The notes under the pieces are model-generated. The model ran no database searches, was not told where the DNA came from, and saw only the letters and a program-made list of their open reading frames with translations. From Escherichia phage ECML-183-2, in the sequence record OL631481.1: a DNA stretch of 64,000 bases; one strand, given 5' to 3'. The position numbers were made by a program, and so were the translations under genes. Of this stretch, positions 1 to 57,636 are shown piece after piece (position 1 is the first letter of the stretch; each line of letters opens with the position of its first letter).

Positions 1-318
1 TCTCGTAACCTTGTAGAATTCAAATGGTTTTCACCTGAATCATTAGGTTGGAAGAAAGTAGACGATCCTGAAGAACAAAAGAAAATTGATAAAGAATGTC
101 TTGCTAAAGTCGAAGAATGGAAGCATAATAAGGAAAAAGAGACAGGGCAAATTTGGGCTAACATTCATGAATCTCCCAAAGGTGGATGGTTTACAGCCTA
201 TAGTCGGGCAGGTGAACTTGCTGCTTTAGCTGTTACTAAGGCTGGAGAATTTTACAATCTTAACGTTCAGCTTACTGCCGGATATGATGTGGGTAATTCC
301 TGGGCATCCTGTCATTGA
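1..318 (+). CDS. hypothetical protein, 3' fragment (gene starts upstream of window)
   Basis: Frame 1 is open from position 1 to TGA at 316-318; no start codon inside window. Confidence 0.4.
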   Translation, partial: SRNLVEFKWFSPESLGWKKVDDPEEQKKIDKECLAKVEEWKHNKEKETGQIWANIHESPKGGWFTAYSRAGELAALAVTKAGEFYNLNVQLTAGYDVGNSWASCH

Positions 319-736: not shown

Positions 737-955
737 ATGCGTAAATTAGTGAGCTTTAATGTTTCAATTCTTGTTGATGAACAAAATGAAGATGTTATTA
801 AAGGTCTTGCAAATAAGATTGCAGGTGGAATGACGGAAGCTGAAGTGTGGGAAGAATGTGCTCGACTTTATGAGGAAGGTGTTATTGAGGTCTTGGGGGA
901 TGAGATTAATATGGACGATGTTGTAAAAGTAACTGTGGAGCGTATCAATGACTAA
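737..955 (+). CDS. hypothetical protein
   Basis: 72 aa ORF, AAGGAGAAAACA-ATG ribosome binding site. Confidence 0.5.
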   Translation: MRKLVSFNVSILVDEQNEDVIKGLANKIAGGMTEAEVWEECARLYEEGVIEVLGDEINMDDVVKVTVERIND

Positions 956-1541
956 ATCAAAACAAATCAATATTGCCAAAGAAATTCTTACCGTATTAAA
1001 GATCGCTGATCCTAATTCTGTCTTGGCTGGCGGTGCTGTTCGTGATTGGCGTATTCTTGATATTGCTGGACGTGATCTGGATTTCTATACATCCCTTCCT
1101 GCACATCGGACTGAAGAACAAGTACAAGGATTAATTGCATCTGCTTTAATGGGAACCAATATTCGTAAACTAGGAAACAAAGAGGCTTCTGACAATTATG
1201 AAGGTGTTACTGGTCTTAAACACGTTTTTGAGTTTGAACGTGATGGTCAGCTTTGCAACCTTATGATTATGGAACCAAGCGTAATGACAACCTTTCTAAA
1301 TGAGTTTGATCTGTCCATCTGCCAGGCTGCATTTGATGGGAAGGATTGTTATTACTCTAAAGATTTTGAAACAACTTTGGAAACAGGGATCTGCTTCTTG
1401 CACAAAGATGTTAGAGAAGATGCCAAACACGTTATTAAAATTGCTACACGTTTCCCATATCTTCGTTTTGTGAAAGAGGTTAAGGTTCCACGTCCACCTC
1501 AAGTAGATACCAGATTGGAAGAAGATGATATTCCTTGGTAA
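948..1541 (+). CDS. Pol-beta superfamily nucleotidyltransferase, CCA-adding-enzyme head-like (GGAVRD...DLD), acidic C-terminal tip EEDDIPW
   Basis: Motif LAGGAVRDWRILDIAGRDLDF matches the class II tRNA nucleotidyltransferase signature; overlaps upstream stop. Confidence 0.5.
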   Translation: MTKSKQINIAKEILTVLKIADPNSVLAGGAVRDWRILDIAGRDLDFYTSLPAHRTEEQVQGLIASALMGTNIRKLGNKEASDNYEGVTGLKHVFEFERDGQLCNLMIMEPSVMTTFLNEFDLSICQAAFDGKDCYYSKDFETTLETGICFLHKDVREDAKHVIKIATRFPYLRFVKEVKVPRPPQVDTRLEEDDIPW

Positions 1542-1548
1542 TTAAAGC

Positions 1549-1578
1549 TTGACAATATTAAACATTTTATGATAGGAT
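1549..1578 (+). promoter_or_regulatory. sigma70-like promoter TTGACA-N18-TAGGAT
   Basis: -35 at 1549-1554, -10 at 1573-1578, immediately upstream of the ORF starting at 1587. Confidence 0.4.
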
Positions 1579-1586
1579 AGCATTCA

Positions 1587-1979
1587 ATGACTGAACGTTC
1601 TAAGATAGCTGTTGAAACTGTTTATGGAAACTACACCAGTTTGACACTAGTTGAGAAAAATGTTGTAGGTCTTGACAACTCTTTTTATTTTCAAATTTTG
1701 GTTATTCAAGGTGGAAACAAGAAGCTAACTGCTCGTGTCGAAACATCTGAAATAATTGAAACCACTGTTACAAACAAAGAATTCATTTCACTGCAAGATA
1801 CAATCCGAAACGTTATAGACGAAGAAGGCAAAGCTGCCACAATTAAACTCGGAGGTTTCCCAGTGCAAATAGTTCATTTTCCTAATGGTGAAATTGGAGT
1901 TGGAATAGGTAAAGGTAAATACCTGTTAGAGCAAGATGATATGGAAAGACTCCGCTCTTTCTGTGCAAAATTAATGTAA
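1587..1979 (+). CDS. hypothetical protein
   Basis: 130 aa ORF downstream of predicted promoter. Confidence 0.55.
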   Translation: MTERSKIAVETVYGNYTSLTLVEKNVVGLDNSFYFQILVIQGGNKKLTARVETSEIIETTVTNKEFISLQDTIRNVIDEEGKAATIKLGGFPVQIVHFPNGEIGVGIGKGKYLLEQDDMERLRSFCAKLM

Positions 1980-1995
1980 TGTAGAGGAGATAATA

Positions 1996-2883
1996 ATGTC
2001 CGTAATTAATACTGAAACTGATCGTAAAGGCAAAACCGTAACTTATGCAACTGGTATCGTAGACTACGTTAAACTGGATAAATTCGCTGAACCTAAAACT
2101 TTTCATTGGGAAGGAAAAACGATTGTTTCAACTCACCGAGCTTCTCTTGTTCTGAAAGAGAAAGGTGCTAAACCAGATGAGAAAGGTGTTTGGATTTCTC
2201 TTGGTGATATTGAACTGAAAGAAGGTTATGAAAACCTGCAAGTCAAAGAAGGTGATAATTGGATCACTATTGAAAAAGGTGTAGAAGTAAGTATTGATAT
2301 TGATCGTGTTGATAATAAAGGCGGTAAAACTTACTACAATACTAAAAAATCTCGTATTACAGTATTGTCTACCGATGGTGTTCAGAAGTCTAACAAATCT
2401 TCTGGCAATAAAGGTTCCAACGATGCTGCTCCTAAACAATCCTATAAAAAACGTGATACTGTAGGTCTGGAAACTGGTCACGCAGTAAATGGTGCACTGG
2501 AACTGATTCGTAATGGTGTTAAAGGCGATGCTTTCGATATCGCTGGGGTTGTTCAATCTGCAACTGTCACGCTGAAATCTGAAATTGCTGAATCTCGTGG
2601 CGTTGATATTAATGATTATGATCTTGGGGCATCTGTTGGTCACGCTATCCTCAATGCTTGTAAAGACCATACCATTAAGACTGTATCTGTAGAAGATCTG
2701 ATTGATTCTGCTCGTAAAGTTCTGGCTCTGTCTGATAAAGTTGCTGCTGCCATTCGTGGTTCCGCAGAACAACCTAAGAAAGAAGAGAAGAAAGAAGTTA
2801 AAAAGCCTGAACCACAACCAGAACCAACTCCAAGTAATCAAGAAGAACCTCCGATGGACTTCGATGATGATATTCCGTTCTGA
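1996..2883 (+). CDS. putative ssDNA-binding protein with E. coli SSB-type C-terminal tip (PMDFDDDIPF)
   Basis: 295 aa; low-complexity acidic linker then terminal DFDDDIPF, identical to the host SSB-Ct motif; GAGGAG RBS. Confidence 0.55.
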   Translation: MSVINTETDRKGKTVTYATGIVDYVKLDKFAEPKTFHWEGKTIVSTHRASLVLKEKGAKPDEKGVWISLGDIELKEGYENLQVKEGDNWITIEKGVEVSIDIDRVDNKGGKTYYNTKKSRITVLSTDGVQKSNKSSGNKGSNDAAPKQSYKKRDTVGLETGHAVNGALELIRNGVKGDAFDIAGVVQSATVTLKSEIAESRGVDINDYDLGASVGHAILNACKDHTIKTVSVEDLIDSARKVLALSDKVAAAIRGSAEQPKKEEKKEVKKPEPQPEPTPSNQEEPPMDFDDDIPF

Positions 2884-2917
2884 TCTTATTGATTTATAAA
2901 GAGTTTTTTATAAAAGA

Positions 2918-2945
2918 AAGGAGCCAAATGGCTCCTTTTCTTATT
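2918..2945. terminator. bidirectional intrinsic terminator between convergent genes
   Basis: Hairpin AAGGAGCC-AAAT-GGCTCCTT flanked by T-runs on both strands. Confidence 0.6.
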
Positions 2946-48389: not shown

Positions 48390-48746
48390 ATGAGTGGTAT
48401 TGAAAACAATATTTGTTACCAACCTCTTACCTGGATTGGTGAGGGTCATTATGCGCAACGTGTTATCGTCTGTGCTGCGAATAAGTATATTTTGAATAAT
48501 GGTGAAGAGTTAATTATTCCTTGTGTTCGACATGCAAATCCTGTACTATATGCACAGTTAAGCGTGTTGAAAGAAGCAGGTGTAATCAACAAAACTTTGT
48601 GCACACCAGATAATCAAGGCTTTATCGATCAGTATTACAATTGGTGGAGTCGTGCGGATGCTTACGTCATCGCGGAAAATGCTGACCAGATCGACCATGA
48701 GCGTAATGGTCACGACCATGAATTATTTAGCGAGGGATTATACTAA
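48390..48746 (+). CDS. hypothetical early protein
   Basis: 118 aa; GAGGAGGA RBS. Confidence 0.5.
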   Translation: MSGIENNICYQPLTWIGEGHYAQRVIVCAANKYILNNGEELIIPCVRHANPVLYAQLSVLKEAGVINKTLCTPDNQGFIDQYYNWWSRADAYVIAENADQIDHERNGHDHELFSEGLY

Positions 48747-49297
48747 TGTTTATTACAAGCGATTTGCATTTTATGCATAAACGTATTCGAGAGTTTGCTC
48801 CTGAATATCGTCCGTGGGAAGATATGGACCACATGACAGAAGCCTTGATCGAAGCATGGAACAAATGTGCTACTACTCCTGGTGTTAAGATGTGGCATTT
48901 GGGCGACTTCTGTTTCGGAACTGAAGAAGATACCCGTAAAATTGCTTCCCGTCTCCAAGGAGATATCACCTACTGTGTTGGGAACCATGACTACAGCAAA
49001 CACCGAGAAGTGCTTGCAGAGTATGGAGAAGTGGTGTATTATGACGAAGTGAAATATCAGAAGCTGTTCTTCGTCTTAAGCCATTACCCTATGGCCTCCT
49101 GGAATAAACAAGGTCGTGGATCAATCATGCTACACGGGCATTCCCACGGATCTTTCCCTGATGAAGCTTATGGTAAAATGTTAGATGTGGGTTGGGATGC
49201 ACACGGAAAAATCTTGCATTTTGATGAGATAATTTCTATGATGAGTAAACGAGATATCGTGACTGTAGACCATCACAAAATAATCAAAGGAGAGTAA
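48746..49297 (+). CDS. calcineurin-like metallophosphoesterase
   Basis: Motifs D-x-H (SDLHF), GD (HLGDF), GNHD (VGNHDY), GHSHG in canonical order. Confidence 0.6.
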   Translation: MFITSDLHFMHKRIREFAPEYRPWEDMDHMTEALIEAWNKCATTPGVKMWHLGDFCFGTEEDTRKIASRLQGDITYCVGNHDYSKHREVLAEYGEVVYYDEVKYQKLFFVLSHYPMASWNKQGRGSIMLHGHSHGSFPDEAYGKMLDVGWDAHGKILHFDEIISMMSKRDIVTVDHHKIIKGE

Positions 49298-49298
49298 T

Positions 49299-50231
49299 GT
49301 GACTAAATTTAATTGCGACGATTTGGTTGAAAAAGGTTTAGTTCATAAGAAAACATATAAAGAAGGAGAGTATTCTGGTCTATCTGTTCTTAAGTATAAG
49401 AACAAAGTTTTCTGGGATAACTTATGGAGCATTGATTCTCGTCTTCTAGAATGTCGCGGAATCGTTGTTGATGCTGATGACAATGTTGTTATTTGGCCTT
49501 TCACTAAGATTTTTAATCGTTTTGAGAATGGCACAGATCTACCAGCGGATGAACTTGTAGATGTGGTTCGTAAAGTAAATGGTTTTATGGCCTCTGTAGG
49601 TGTATATAAAGGTCAACTTATTGTATCGACAACAGGAAGCCTTGAATCAGATTTTGCAAGTATTGCAAAGAATCATATTGTTTCAGAGTGTGATGACATA
49701 GAACATTTCATCAAATGGACAGAGAGTGCAAAAGCAACTTTCCTTTTTGAAATCTGCGATCCTTCTGATCCGCATATTGTCGAAGAAGAACCAGGTGCAT
49801 ACTTAATTGGTGCCAGAATTCAAAATCCTGATGGGACAAGTTTTATGTTACCTGAAGGTGCTCTTGATGGAATTGCTTCTGTCACCAAATTTAAGCGTCC
49901 TGAAGTTCATTCGATGGTTAAGTTTTCAGATGTTGTTGAAATGTCTAAACATTGTAAACACGAAGGGTTTGTAGTTCGTGAAACAAACTATCCGTTCAAC
50001 TTGCTTTTAAAAATTAAATCACCACACTATCTTACTAAGAAGTTTCTTATGCGTGGTGGAGATAAAAAGTGGGATCTGATTTGGGATAATCCAAAAAATG
50101 CCAAACAAATTGTTGACGAAGAATATTACGCTTTGTTAGAATGGATTCGAAATAATTTTACGAAGACTCAATGGGCTGCTTTAAATCAGCAAGAGCGACG
50201 TGAAAAAATCGAAAACTTCTTTGGGGGATAA
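49299..50231 (+). CDS. rnlA: RNA ligase 1-like (T4 RnlA-like) covalent nucleotidyltransferase
   Basis: Motif I KVNG, motif IV EGFVVRE, motif V LLLKIK; N-terminal LLECRGIVVD resembles T4 Rnl1 ALECRGIMFE from memory. Confidence 0.6.
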   Translation: MTKFNCDDLVEKGLVHKKTYKEGEYSGLSVLKYKNKVFWDNLWSIDSRLLECRGIVVDADDNVVIWPFTKIFNRFENGTDLPADELVDVVRKVNGFMASVGVYKGQLIVSTTGSLESDFASIAKNHIVSECDDIEHFIKWTESAKATFLFEICDPSDPHIVEEEPGAYLIGARIQNPDGTSFMLPEGALDGIASVTKFKRPEVHSMVKFSDVVEMSKHCKHEGFVVRETNYPFNLLLKIKSPHYLTKKFLMRGGDKKWDLIWDNPKNAKQIVDEEYYALLEWIRNNFTKTQWAALNQQERREKIENFFGG

Positions 50232-52898: not shown

Positions 52899-53624
52899 AT
52901 GATCGAGAATTTTTTTAAAGATATTAAATTCGATACTGAATTTTTCAAAAATGCAGCAAAGCACGTGATTGATTGGAATGCCAAAGCACGAGGTGGTGAA
53001 CAACCGGAATTCACTCAAGAGCTATTTATGTCCCAAATCGGGTTCGTTCGTGAAGAGCTTAAAGAGTATGAAACAGCCGCGAAAGTAAACGATCATGTAG
53101 AACTCTTGGATGCAGCAGCGGATATTTTTGTAGTATCCAGTTATCTGACCTACATGTTCTTTGGTGAAGAACATACGATGAATTTCTTGGACTATGCTGT
53201 AGGCGATGTTTTTACTCCAACTGTGTATACTGATTTTGATGCTTTGGAACAAACATTTACAGAGCCAGTTCAAATGGCACTAATGGCTGCTGGTATTATG
53301 CGTATGTCTCGTGACACTCTAATCCGTTCAAAATATCCAGAAAAGAAAGTTATTAAAGAGGTATTGAAAAGTAATGATTCCAAGTATCCAACTAAACAAC
53401 AGTTGCTGAAAACTTGGAAAACTTCGGATATCGATTCAGCCATTGCACAAGAATGCGCTGCAATTGAAGAACGAAATGCCAATCGTCCAGAAGGGGCATA
53501 CACTGGTGTTCATGCTGTTTATAATGAAAAACAGAAAGTGTATGTGTTCTTTGATGATAAAGGTAAGATCATGAAACCATCGACCTTTGTCAAACCTAAT
53601 ATTGCAGGTATTATTAATAAGTAA
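52899..53624 (+). CDS. MazG-like nucleotide pyrophosphohydrolase domain protein
   Basis: REELKEYETAAKVNDHVELLDAAADIFV resembles the all-alpha NTP-PPase EExxE...D signature. Confidence 0.45.
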   Translation: MIENFFKDIKFDTEFFKNAAKHVIDWNAKARGGEQPEFTQELFMSQIGFVREELKEYETAAKVNDHVELLDAAADIFVVSSYLTYMFFGEEHTMNFLDYAVGDVFTPTVYTDFDALEQTFTEPVQMALMAAGIMRMSRDTLIRSKYPEKKVIKEVLKSNDSKYPTKQQLLKTWKTSDIDSAIAQECAAIEERNANRPEGAYTGVHAVYNEKQKVYVFFDDKGKIMKPSTFVKPNIAGIINK

Positions 53625-54853: not shown

Positions 54854-55972
54854 ATTAGCGGTTATATTTTAATTAAACCTGAAGATCTTCATTTATATGT
54901 CAACGAAGAAACAGTAGCTGCAATTGATTATGATCAGATCGCTTTCCAAGCAGCGTCTGCATTAGAGAAAAGAACAATCATTGCCAAGCACATCCCTTCA
55001 GGTGCTCAAAAGGAATTTAAAAATAAGACAGAGTTTTGGGGTAAAAGTAAGACTAAAATTGGAGGTTGGCTAGGAGATACAAATGCAGAAAGAGCCTCCA
55101 AAAACAAACGTCCCTTCACAAAGGAAGAGTTCGAAATTATTGATAAGCAATACCCGCCAGAAGATATCGGACACACCTTCCAAGCAGCTAAAACAAAAGT
55201 CTTAGGTATTCTAAAACATCTACGTTTAGAAAAATATTGCGGAGTTATTGGCGTAGGAAAAACTTTCAGACACGCCTTCAAAATGCCTGTAGAATATAAG
55301 TCTGAACGATTAGATATCAAACCACTTCAGCTTTCAGAAACCAAAGATTATCTTGTGGAGTTCCACAATGGTGATGTTGTTACTGTAATAGAGGCTGACG
55401 ATGAGTTAGAGAAGTATGGTTTCCAAGGTTATAAAGATTATAAAAGGACGGGTAAATTTTCTTATATTGTAGTGTCTATAGATAAAGATAGTTTACATAC
55501 TCCTAGTATCCTTTTTAATTTCTACAAAGAGGATGGAGTATTTAAAAATCCAGATATAATTCTTATTGACGAGTCTATTGGCGACATATGGATCGTAGAT
55601 AAAGGTAAAAAGAAAGAAGTTAAAGGTTGGGGAAGTTATTGGTTAGCCTATCAGATGCTAATGGGAGATAAAACAGATAGTATCCGACCTTATCAAGATT
55701 TTGATATTAAGTTTGGAGATATTACTTGTTTTAATCTTCTCTCAGCTTGTAAAACTCAAGCAGAGCTTTTCCAAACAGTTAAAGATACTTACTACTCGTG
55801 GTTCCCAGATGGTGTTAATTTTACTTCTTGGGATGGAGAAGAAGTCCATATGACAACAGACGAATGGATAGAAACAATTTTCCAGTTGGTATACATGAAA
55901 CGCTGGGATAATGACGATACAACATTTGAGAGTATGCTTCAGTCATACATCTCACAACAGGAGGCAGAGTGA
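54854..55972 (+). CDS. rnh: 5'-3' exonuclease / RNase H (FEN family, T4 rnh-like); start codon uncertain
   Basis: Motifs AAIDYDQIAF, VIEADDE, LMGDKTDSI; frame open from 54842 with no ATG/GTG/TTG before 55283; candidate AUU at 54854 after AGGGGGA. Confidence 0.5.
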   Translation: MSGYILIKPEDLHLYVNEETVAAIDYDQIAFQAASALEKRTIIAKHIPSGAQKEFKNKTEFWGKSKTKIGGWLGDTNAERASKNKRPFTKEEFEIIDKQYPPEDIGHTFQAAKTKVLGILKHLRLEKYCGVIGVGKTFRHAFKMPVEYKSERLDIKPLQLSETKDYLVEFHNGDVVTVIEADDELEKYGFQGYKDYKRTGKFSYIVVSIDKDSLHTPSILFNFYKEDGVFKNPDIILIDESIGDIWIVDKGKKKEVKGWGSYWLAYQMLMGDKTDSIRPYQDFDIKFGDITCFNLLSACKTQAELFQTVKDTYYSWFPDGVNFTSWDGEEVHMTTDEWIETIFQLVYMKRWDNDDTTFESMLQSYISQQEAE

Positions 55973-56928
55973 GCAGATTAACAGAAGAGCAGAAAGCAGA
56001 TATCCTTAGTATGAGTGCAGAGGGTATGTCTTCTCGCAATATTGCAGCAATTGTTTTAGGTAGTCCAACAAGAAAAAGCACAGTAAATGATTTCCTTGCA
56101 CGTTTCGGTGCAAGTAAACAAGAGCCAGTTAAAAAGAAACAACCAGTTATTAAAATTATTGATGTTGAAACTGCACCAGAGATTGCATATACTTTCCGTC
56201 GATTCAAAGCCTTCATTTCTCCAGACCAGGTAATTCGTAGGGGTTATTTGTTATCTTACTCTTCTGCTGATTTGTATACTGGTGAAGTGGAAGGTAAGAA
56301 CTTGTCTTCTTATCCTCTTTTTGATATTGATCATACAGATGATTGGGAGCTTTGCCAAGATCTTTGGAACCTTCTGAATGAGGCAGATGTAGTTGTGGCA
56401 CACAACGGGTATAAGTTTGACCGTGCATACATTAACCAACGATTTGCATATCACGATATGGCTCCTCCTTCTAATTATGTAGTTGTTGATACATTGAAGG
56501 CAGCTAAGAAACAATTTGCACTTCCTTCCAACTCCCTTAAAGAAATGGGAGCATATTTCGAAACAGAAAGTGAAAAACTGGATAACGAGGGGTTCCCTTT
56601 ATGGAAAGCATGTTGTGAAGGTGATCGTGATGCTTTTGAACGTATGCAGATTTACAATGATGGCGATGTTGTTTCACTCCGTGATTTGTATATGAAAATC
56701 CTTCCGTGGATTCCACAGCATCCTAACTTATCCGCTTATTACCCAGATGAGAAAGTCCGTTGTTCTCGTTGCGGCAGTGATCATGTTCACGTTGTTACTG
56801 GTAAGCAATACCACACTGCGGTAAGTTCTTTCGATATCATTCGTTGTGAATCTTGTGGAGGTTTGTCACGTAGTAGAGCAAACACCAGATCCAAAGATAA
56901 ACGAGCAGCAACTATTATTGGAATCTAA
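55969..56928 (+). CDS. DnaQ-like 3'-5' exonuclease with N-terminal HTH and C-terminal zinc finger
   Basis: Exo motifs IIDVETAP, VVAHNGYKFD, YNDGDVVSLRDLY; HTH-like SSRNIAAIV; CSRCGS...CESCGG. Confidence 0.55.
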   Translation: MSRLTEEQKADILSMSAEGMSSRNIAAIVLGSPTRKSTVNDFLARFGASKQEPVKKKQPVIKIIDVETAPEIAYTFRRFKAFISPDQVIRRGYLLSYSSADLYTGEVEGKNLSSYPLFDIDHTDDWELCQDLWNLLNEADVVVAHNGYKFDRAYINQRFAYHDMAPPSNYVVVDTLKAAKKQFALPSNSLKEMGAYFETESEKLDNEGFPLWKACCEGDRDAFERMQIYNDGDVVSLRDLYMKILPWIPQHPNLSAYYPDEKVRCSRCGSDHVHVVTGKQYHTAVSSFDIIRCESCGGLSRSRANTRSKDKRAATIIGI

Positions 56929-56934
56929 TAATCA

Positions 56935-56958
56935 GGGAGCTTATTGCTCCCTTTTTTA
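56935..56958 (+). terminator. intrinsic terminator
   Basis: GGGAGC-TTATT-GCTCCC hairpin followed by T6. Confidence 0.6.
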
Positions 56959-56987
56959 TTGACAAAAATTTGATATTAGTGTATACT
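56959..56987 (+). promoter_or_regulatory. sigma70-like promoter TTGACA-N17-TATACT
   Basis: Consensus -35 at 56959-56964 and -10 at 56982-56987 directly after terminator. Confidence 0.5.
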
Positions 56988-57014
56988 CTGCTAACCACAA
57001 TAAAAGGAGGAAAT

Positions 57015-57242
57015 ATGAGCATTACATTAACAGGTAACGAAATTTTCGAACTGTTTGAAATGTTAGGTTTGAACTATACCATCGAGAAAGACCCAGATTT
57101 ACTTGACGTTAAAATAACAATTCAAGAAGATACAGCAATCTACAATGATGATGGTGATGTTATCTATCAAGGTAGGGTAGCTTATTATACAGATTACCCA
57201 GAAGAAGGCGCAGTAGGAATTCAGGAGGAAAATTATGTCTAA
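57015..57242 (+). CDS. hypothetical protein (start revised)
   Basis: ATG at 57015 after AAAGGAGGAAAT; ORF-track start at 56970 overlaps the promoter. Confidence 0.5.
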   Translation: MSITLTGNEIFELFEMLGLNYTIEKDPDLLDVKITIQEDTAIYNDDGDVIYQGRVAYYTDYPEEGAVGIQEENYV

Positions 57243-57636
57243 TGCTTTTGATAATCAGGTTGACGGTGATCACTACACAAAAATGGCAATGCAACCTATC
57301 GAACTAACTTATTTGGTTGGTGGCACACCTTGTTTTTGCAAATTGGCAAAATACGCAACACGTATTAAAGGTGAACGTCAGATTAACCTAGATAAAGCTA
57401 TTCATTGTATTGAACTAGAAAGAACCCTTATGCAAAATAACACGTATATGGTTCGTGAAAATTATCCATCTATGACAAATGCAGCTAAACATGATCAAGC
57501 TATGCTTCTTATTGATTTCTTCACAAAAGATCCTTTAATCCGAGTGGCACTGAAACACATGTATAACTCTTCTTATGTAGATGCAGTTGAAGCTATTAAA
57601 CAACTTAAGGAACGTATTAGTGGCGAGCAATACTAA
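57235..57636 (+). CDS. hypothetical protein
   Basis: 133 aa; GGAGGA RBS; 8-nt overlap with upstream gene. Confidence 0.5.
   Translation: MSNAFDNQVDGDHYTKMAMQPIELTYLVGGTPCFCKLAKYATRIKGERQINLDKAIHCIELERTLMQNNTYMVRENYPSMTNAAKHDQAMLLIDFFTKDPLIRVALKHMYNSSYVDAVEAIKQLKERISGEQY

Follow-up and report, generated by a model that had tools for sequence, protein, structure and literature searches.

What does a small stand-alone nucleotidyltransferase that carries the signature of a CCA-adding enzyme do in a myovirus of E. coli? The question is raised by a gene at positions 948..1541 (plus strand) of a 64,000 nucleotide stretch of Escherichia phage ECML-183-2 (sequence record OL631481.1). This stretch, called the window throughout, is from a Phapecoctavirus (phAPEC8-like, genome of ~150 kb) and its initial 6 kb share 98% identity with many deposited genomes. 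The open reading frame (ORF) encodes 197 amino acids and is referred to here as the nucleotidyltransferase (NTase); its ATG start overlaps the stop codon of an upstream 72-aa ORF (…ATCAATGACTAA…) and a GGAG is located ~9 nt 5' of the ATG. A first-pass annotation, made from the DNA letters alone, had described an ORF with GGAVRD followed by DLD and had proposed a role at tRNA 3' ends; coordinates, length and motifs are exactly as described there. The gene is already annotated, as the same gene is present in GenBank at 99.5% identity (gp125 of the phage tuntematon), and it is therefore not new: it belongs to a widespread family of phage NTases and is labelled either 'nucleotidyltransferase' or 'putative tRNA nucleotidyl transferase / poly(A) polymerase'. 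The near-invariance of the motifs among 197 family members and the retention of the C-terminal tail in relatives indicate that the features of this ORF are not chance.

Catalytic domain and relation to Gad2

Sequence profile comparisons relate the NTase to Gad2, a 400-aa protein of the Bacillus phage SPbetaL7 (ORF_159) that is needed to overcome the Gabija defence and is a predicted nucleotidyltransferase; anti-Gabija activity is known only for this protein and for a homologue from Brevibacillus (10.1101/2023.05.01.538930, the supplement of which was the source of the Gad2 sequence). When the 197 family members were compared with 120 Gad2 homologues by hhalign, the probability was 95.9% (E 5e-9) over 122 columns, with residues 11-153 of the window NTase aligned to residues 16-140 of Gad2. 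Gad2 proteins score 31-36 bits against the hidden Markov model (HMM) of the NTase family. Several relatives of the NTase, among them P0009 (60% identity), P0015 and P0016 (37%), have a match to the Pfam family PF26128 'Gad2'; these matches are precomputed annotations of the relatives and not the window protein's own score.

The two proteins are both phage-borne and have the motifs AGGA, D[LV]D[FI]Y and FD..[IV]C..AFD in common, as well as a Q or N on the following central strand (Q88 is invariant in Gad2, Q/N is present in 189 of the 197 family members). In the AlphaFold models, helices and strands follow one another in the same order across Gad2 residues 1-~165. Gad2 differs by a linker of helices (182-246) and a C-terminal domain rich in beta strands (251-385), both absent from the window NTase, by the sequence GGAITSLF where the NTase family has GGA[VP]RDW, and by the lack of a C-terminal tip like that of SSB (the protein that binds single-stranded DNA); moreover, its gene belongs to a temperate Bacillus phage, where it is part of an anti-defence locus and not of a replication module. 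Because the N-terminal domain is homologous and has the same fold order, but the linker and the C-terminal domain are absent, the window NTase is a short form of the Gad2-type catalytic domain and not a full Gad2. We found no published study of the window NTase gene or of the mechanism of Gad2.

The catalytic motif is intact. Motif A (1029..1082, plus strand) reads G28-G29-A-V-R32-D33-W34, followed after nine residues by D43-L-D45, with GGAVRD at residues 28-33 (nt 1029-1046) and DLD at residues 43-45 (nt 1074-1082). D43 and D45 are present in all 197 family members, GG in 196, W34 in 195 and R32 in 191; Y84 and K164 are also nearly or fully invariant. With these residues conserved to such a degree, the NTase is very probably an active enzyme. 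A further family signature, F120-D-L-S-I-C125-Q-A-A-F (1305..1334, plus strand), is at the position of motif B of the class II enzymes (RRDFTINA) and aligns with FDFTVCMGAF of Gad2 (hhalign); F120 is found in 176 of the 197 members, C125 in 159, with a serine at this position in 33 more.

The AlphaFold2 model, built with 56 homologues (pLDDT 86.6, pTM 0.80), has one alpha/beta domain that ends at about residue 175. Its best match is the head domain of class II CCA-adding and poly(A) enzymes (Foldseek against the PDB: E 5e-5, TM 0.56), and the targets, which are 372-517 aa long, are matched at their N-terminus only (TMt 0.24-0.31). The absence of body and tail domains noted in the first-pass annotation is thus confirmed: the model consists of a single head-type domain and its last ~15 residues are disordered. 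Profile searches of the PDB by sequence returned only weak, spurious matches (Cas12f, allophycocyanin) and scans of the ORF with PADLOC, Pfam and NCBIfam gave either nothing or sub-threshold matches to motif A; both PHROG matches (10174 and 1614) are labelled 'nucleotidyltransferase'.

The family, with proteins of about 190 aa, is large: 1045 representatives came up in an exhaustive profile search at E<=1e-3, and 333 of these at E<=1e-10. Almost all are stand-alone proteins of 170-240 aa. Deposited phages with a family member include Phapecoctavirus, Justusliebigvirus, Klebsiella phages and many Vibrio phages, among them ICP1, and the best structural matches in BFVD are small phage proteins, many from T7-like podoviruses. 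In several ICP1 isolates the family match spans two annotated ORFs, and the gene may therefore be decaying or split in these phages; in ICP1_2006_E, the family copy (ORF223, L006 4956-5375) ends at 139 aa, just past the FGASVCMAW motif. Two groups of relatives have N-terminal extensions of 90-210 aa (the first with P0120, P0138 and P0116, also L040, L053, L056 and L068, the second with P0163, P0171 and P0111), and in one of the groups the extension looks internally repeated. No Pfam domain was found in the extensions of the fused relatives (P0120, P0138, P0111, P0163, P0171 and others), which consequently yield no functional clue. P0120 was considered as a Gad2 for its similar length (400 aa) and rejected: its NTase domain is C-terminal and there is no match to a Bacillus phage.

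The C-terminal tip and the replication module

The NTase ends in an acidic tip, E-E-D-D-I-P-W (residues 191-197; 1518..1538, plus strand), which follows a disordered linker and is like the C-terminal peptide of SSB (DDDIPF); pLDDT is below 50 at residues 190-197. The EEDDIPW ending had been pointed out in the first-pass annotation and it is indeed conserved as an acidic, SSB-like tip. An acidic run followed by [IF]PW terminates all ten relatives of 59-97% identity, with a variable linker in front of it; tails of the type [ILVFM]-P-[FWY] are present in eight lineages of the family with less than 45% identity to one another (for example DDIPW, NDIPW, NDFPW and DDGIPF). The same [ILVFM]-P-[FWY] ending is found in 10 of 1144 neighbouring genes. 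Among the N-terminally extended relatives, P0163 and P0171 end in SSB-like tips (NDIPW, SDDDF).

The likeness to the SSB peptide (E. coli SSB: …MDFDDDIPF) consists of the acidic run, the I-P-aromatic sequence at the extreme C-terminus and the position after a disordered linker; different are the carrier, which is an enzyme and not a DNA-binding protein, and the last residue, which is Trp in the NTase and Phe in SSB. T7 gp2.5 and gp4 also have acidic tails that end in Phe, and the tails of E. coli SSB, gp2.5 and gp4 dock into pockets on replication and repair proteins. In the literature, we found no report of a non-SSB protein with an SSB tail.

All stop-to-stop ORFs of at least 60 aa in the six frames of the 64 kb were scanned for tails: only two have an aromatic last residue together with at least three acidic residues in the last eight. 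One is the NTase; the other is an SSB-like protein of 295 aa (1996..2883, plus strand; PHROG 4477), the last 12 residues of which (EPPMDFDDDIPF) are identical to E. coli SSB. Beyond this tail, the SSB-like protein has no match to an SSB or OB-fold model and no PDB sequence match, and it may be a new type of SSB that borrows the recruitment peptide of the host. Its gene is two genes 3' of the NTase gene (offset +2) in five lineages, and DFDDD[IV]PF is kept in four of the five.

The NTase gene is part of a plus-strand string of genes with the order glycosyltransferases, T7-like primase/helicase, Dam methylase, family-A DNA polymerase, three small ORFs, NTase, a 130-aa gene, the SSB-like gene and a terminator. 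This order, from the polymerase via the NTase and the 130-aa gene to the SSB-like gene, is kept in Justusliebigvirus (37% identity) and in three further lineages, L013 included. The gene context was also compared in 80 IMG/VR loci, which reduce to 46 lineages at 70% identity. In 29 of these lineages a primase-helicase (19 loci), PolA (17) or a 5'-3' exonuclease (10) is encoded at a distance of six genes or less; Pfam matches confirmed examples of these. One Vibrio phage of the Zobellviridae has an NTase gene that overlaps the end of the gene for the 5'-3' exonuclease. In Friunavirus this slot, again with an overlap at the end of the exonuclease gene, is taken by 'tRNA nucleotidyltransferase' genes with a GG…DID…FDFNFN pattern, which may represent a parallel family of minimal NTases of the head-domain type. 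ORF31 of the Acinetobacter phage Fri1 (L015 7997-8560) was tried as a family member and rejected, with 11.9 bits against the family HMM.

The window starts within the gene for the T7-like, family-A DNA polymerase: the 3' end of this gene (1..318, plus strand) was assigned by aligning it with tuntematon gp121 (record 55004-57601, with position 57284 of the record corresponding to the window start), and the homologue of this ORF in L017 matches Pfam DNA_pol_A. The 72-aa ORF upstream of the NTase (737..955, plus strand) matches PHROG 25475. Directly 3' of the NTase gene (offset +1 in L017, L018, L019, L022 and L023) is the gene for the 130-aa protein (1587..1979, plus strand; PHROG 16560), which in five lineages, down to ~35% NTase identity, is always between the NTase and the SSB-like gene. 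Neither Pfam nor the PDB has a match to the 130-aa protein, which could be a partner of the NTase or of the SSB-like protein. The NTase gene and the 130-aa gene are separated by 45 nt, and this gap holds a sigma-70-like promoter match (1549-1578, plus strand: TTGACA, an 18 nt spacer and TAGGAT with an upstream TG); the pair of 130-aa and SSB-like genes may therefore also be transcribed on its own. The string of replication genes ends at a terminator-like, bidirectional hairpin (2916..2939), which separates it from the converging tail genes.

Far from this string, the window encodes a MazG-like nucleotide pyrophosphohydrolase (52899-53624, plus strand; Pfam PRA-PH). According to the AntiDefenseFinder preprint, Phapecoctavirus has Atd1, an anti-TIR, MazG-like protein that depletes (p)ppGpp, and the MazG-like gene may be an Atd1 homologue.

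The relation to CCA-adding enzymes and tRNA

The head fold and motif A are common to the NTase and to class II tRNA nucleotidyltransferases and bacterial poly(A) polymerase (3aql, 1miv, 3h37, 3wfs). The class II enzymes differ in that they have neck, body and tail domains as well as motifs B and D, and the context of the window NTase is DNA replication and not tRNA. The signature of a CCA-enzyme head that was recognised in the first-pass annotation thus stands for fold and motif A; it does not extend to motifs B and D, to membership of the Pfam and NCBIfam families or to the probable function. In the same way, structure prediction agrees with a class II head, but remote homology places the protein in the Gad2-type family and not among the CCA-adding enzymes.

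Scores against the models of CCA-adding enzymes are low: Pfam PF01743 (PolyA_pol) reaches 13.7 bits at a cut-off of 23 and matches only residues 26-65, and the CCA models of NCBIfam reach ~12 bits at cut-offs of 290-440 (TIGR02692: 12.6 versus 438.8). In hhalign against E. coli Cca, 40 columns aligned with a probability of 34%, consisting of motif A alone (Cca residues 4-43), and neither BLASTP nor hhalign gave any alignment to E. coli Cca beyond this motif. The arginines of motif B (RRD) are absent, with the equivalent stretch reading E-F-D-L-S-I-C, and motif D (EDxxR) is not conserved: the window NTase has E157-D158-A-K-H161, and among the 197 members positions 157 and 158 are variable and 161 is H or Y. 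When motifs B and D were superimposed by eye on residues 119-170 (Cca: RRDLTINA / EDPLRVLRVARF), the overlay had no support from BLASTP or hhalign and is therefore treated as unproven. The neck, body and tail domains, which hold the tRNA, are absent from the 197-aa protein. A stand-alone 'CCA-adding enzyme head domain' protein is known from Streptococcus pneumoniae (NP_344798.1, PDB 2la3), but it is bacterial, has 13% identity with the window NTase and was not detected by sequence search.

The surroundings also speak against a tRNA role. ARAGORN finds 10 tRNA genes in the window, not the 12 or more that had been counted before; they form a cluster on the minus strand (42146-44132), ~40 kb from the NTase gene, and all ten encode the 3' CCA genomically. 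The E. coli host possesses its own Cca. A tRNA gene within 8 kb of the NTase gene is found in only 7 of the 46 lineages, mostly a single tRNA-Arg, and the Vibrio phage 1.253.O (47 kb) has a family member at 207 bits and no tRNA gene. The RNA repair cassette mentioned in the first-pass annotation does exist, but at a distance of ~47 kb: it consists of a calcineurin-like metallophosphoesterase (48746-49297, plus strand) and, directly 3' of it, a T4 Rnl1-type RNA ligase of 310 aa with a GTG start (49299-50231, plus strand). In tuntematon, which keeps the NTase, no RNA ligase is annotated at the corresponding site, and this tRNA-repair-type pair therefore appears to be variable among Phapecoctaviruses.

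With only motif A kept, no body or tail, the cut-offs of the family models missed, CCA encoded in the tRNA genes and a relative in a phage that has no tRNA gene, the window NTase is most probably not a CCA-adding enzyme. Could it still act on tRNA 3' ends as a minimal enzyme, either to repair or rebuild the CCA of phage or host tRNAs or, like MenT, to block the acceptor end? The shared head fold and motif A would fit, but motifs B and D as well as body and tail, which bind tRNA and select CTP and ATP, are absent, and the tRNA genes and the host already provide for CCA. The neighbours are replication genes in 29 of the 46 lineages, against 7 with a tRNA gene nearby, and the NTase is retained in tuntematon, where the ligase is not annotated. 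For the MenT/AbiEii toxins, which are NTases that act on the tRNA acceptor end, neither a closest relation in fold or sequence nor a toxin-antitoxin pair was found. Of the readings considered here, tRNA repair is the least supported and we regard it as highly improbable; the role at tRNA 3' ends that had been proposed for this ORF was not confirmed.

Candidate roles of the NTase

The reading we favour, and hold as possible rather than probable, is that of a Gad2-like NTase which is tethered to the replisome, recruited to the fork and protects the replicating phage DNA from Gabija-type defence. The analyses above directly support its starting points: the protein has a class II head-type fold, an intact catalytic motif and a place in a phage family that is homologous to Gad2, its gene belongs to a replication module, and its tail is conserved. 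The protein would act as an active, stand-alone NTase of the Pol-beta superfamily with a single class II head-type domain, and the disordered acidic tail ending in DDIPW would copy the SSB C-terminal peptide. For the binding partner of the tail we infer readers of the SSB peptide, which could be host SSB-partner proteins, the phage polymerase or the SSB-like protein, and docking on these would place the NTase at replication forks and single-stranded DNA. There, the metal site of D43 and D45 would transfer a nucleotide onto a replication-associated target, for example the 3' end of DNA or of a primer, or a protein. The purpose would be to shield replicating phage DNA from a Gabija-type nuclease defence; by analogy with Gad2, we infer counter-defence as the most likely purpose. 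Gabija acts at DNA ends in the absence of RecBCD activity, according to a review (PMC12904381). A more specific version, in which DDIPW is a true SSB mimic and the Gad2-type NTase nucleotidylates, at the SSB hub, the 3' ends of DNA or primers or a host protein that binds SSB and thereby blinds defences that sense ends or SSB, such as Gabija, appears rather improbable.

Several points weigh against the favoured reading. The identity between the window NTase and Gad2 is remote (~18%), the C-terminal 235 residues of Gad2 that are missing here may carry Gad2 specificity, and the precomputed PF26128 match is not recorded for the nearest clusters P0001-P0008. The mechanism of Gad2 was still listed as unknown in February 2026 (PMC12904381), and we found no published experiment on any short-form member. 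The SSB-like tip is absent from most family members, including Justusliebigvirus with the same gene order, and is thus a clade-specific accessory and not the core of NTase function. The replication-module context is suggestive only, since such phage modules hold many unrelated early and middle functions. Finally, the NTase core is mildly acidic (pI 5.8; family median 5.95), which is unusual for a protein that binds nucleic acid alone.

The acidic core, by arguing against strong binding of nucleic acid alone, keeps three alternatives alive. The protein may be a replication accessory with no defence role: as a terminal transferase it would extend DNA 3' ends, or the short RNA primers made by the T7-like primase, by untemplated nucleotides and would then serve, for example, in primer handling, end protection or Okazaki fragment processing. 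The position of the gene among replication genes would suit such an enzyme; nevertheless we consider it unlikely, because the acidic core lacks a recognisable DNA-binding module, because the only characterised relative is anti-defence and because many phages with this type of replisome do without the gene, which is truncated in ICP1, so that the NTase is dispensable for replication as such.

An enzyme that works on nucleotides only would be in agreement with a small, acidic protein that has no nucleic-acid-binding domain: it would make or consume a small nucleotide product, for example a dinucleotide (cyclic or linear) or a nucleotide that is capped or carries a polyphosphate, and jam a host defence that senses nucleotides. 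GajA, the nuclease of Gabija, is regulated by nucleotide levels, which counts for this alternative. There is also a precedent, as MNT-like phage NTases (Ho et al.; BCP1, Av05) reportedly synthesise 3'3'-cGAMP and c-di-AMP and block TIR-STING (10.1101/2022.06.09.495361). These are likewise small phage Pol-beta NTases directed against host immunity, but they have a different motif (GS-x-AY[GAN]T-x4-SDxD) and belong to an MNT/KNT-related clade and not to the class II CCA type; overall, we judge a nucleotide-only enzyme to be quite unlikely. The third alternative takes the tip as bait: proteins that read the SSB tail (ExoI, RecQ, PriA, RecJ and others, or a defence helicase or nuclease) would be attracted, AMPylated or otherwise NMPylated by the NTase and thereby disabled. 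The resemblance of the tip to the E. coli SSB peptide, its location on a disordered linker and an acidic core that is unlikely to bind nucleic acid all agree with such a protein nucleotidyltransferase, and protein-modifying enzymes of the Pol-beta fold exist, for example the GlnE-type adenylyltransferases. On the other hand, no protein-modifying NTase ranked above the RNA-end enzymes in the fold matches and the tip is missing from most of the family, so that this alternative is very unlikely.

Small genes annotated as 'nucleotidyltransferase' or 'tRNA nucleotidyltransferase' are present in the replication modules of very many phages; the genes of the family described here most probably do not encode CCA enzymes; their products are distant relatives of the Gad2 catalytic domain. 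The relationship to Gad2, the association with replication modules and the proposed SSB-tail mimic are the new points that should be useful. The SSB-tail-like peptide that was gained by one clade points to the site of action of the enzyme, and if it is a true mimic that brings a Gad2-type NTase to the SSB hub, this would be the first mechanistic handle on the Gad2 family and the first enzyme targeted by a borrowed SSB tail. If the favoured reading is true, a widespread annotation would be corrected and the short form would be a compact, 197-aa and E. coli-based model for Gad2-type chemistry.

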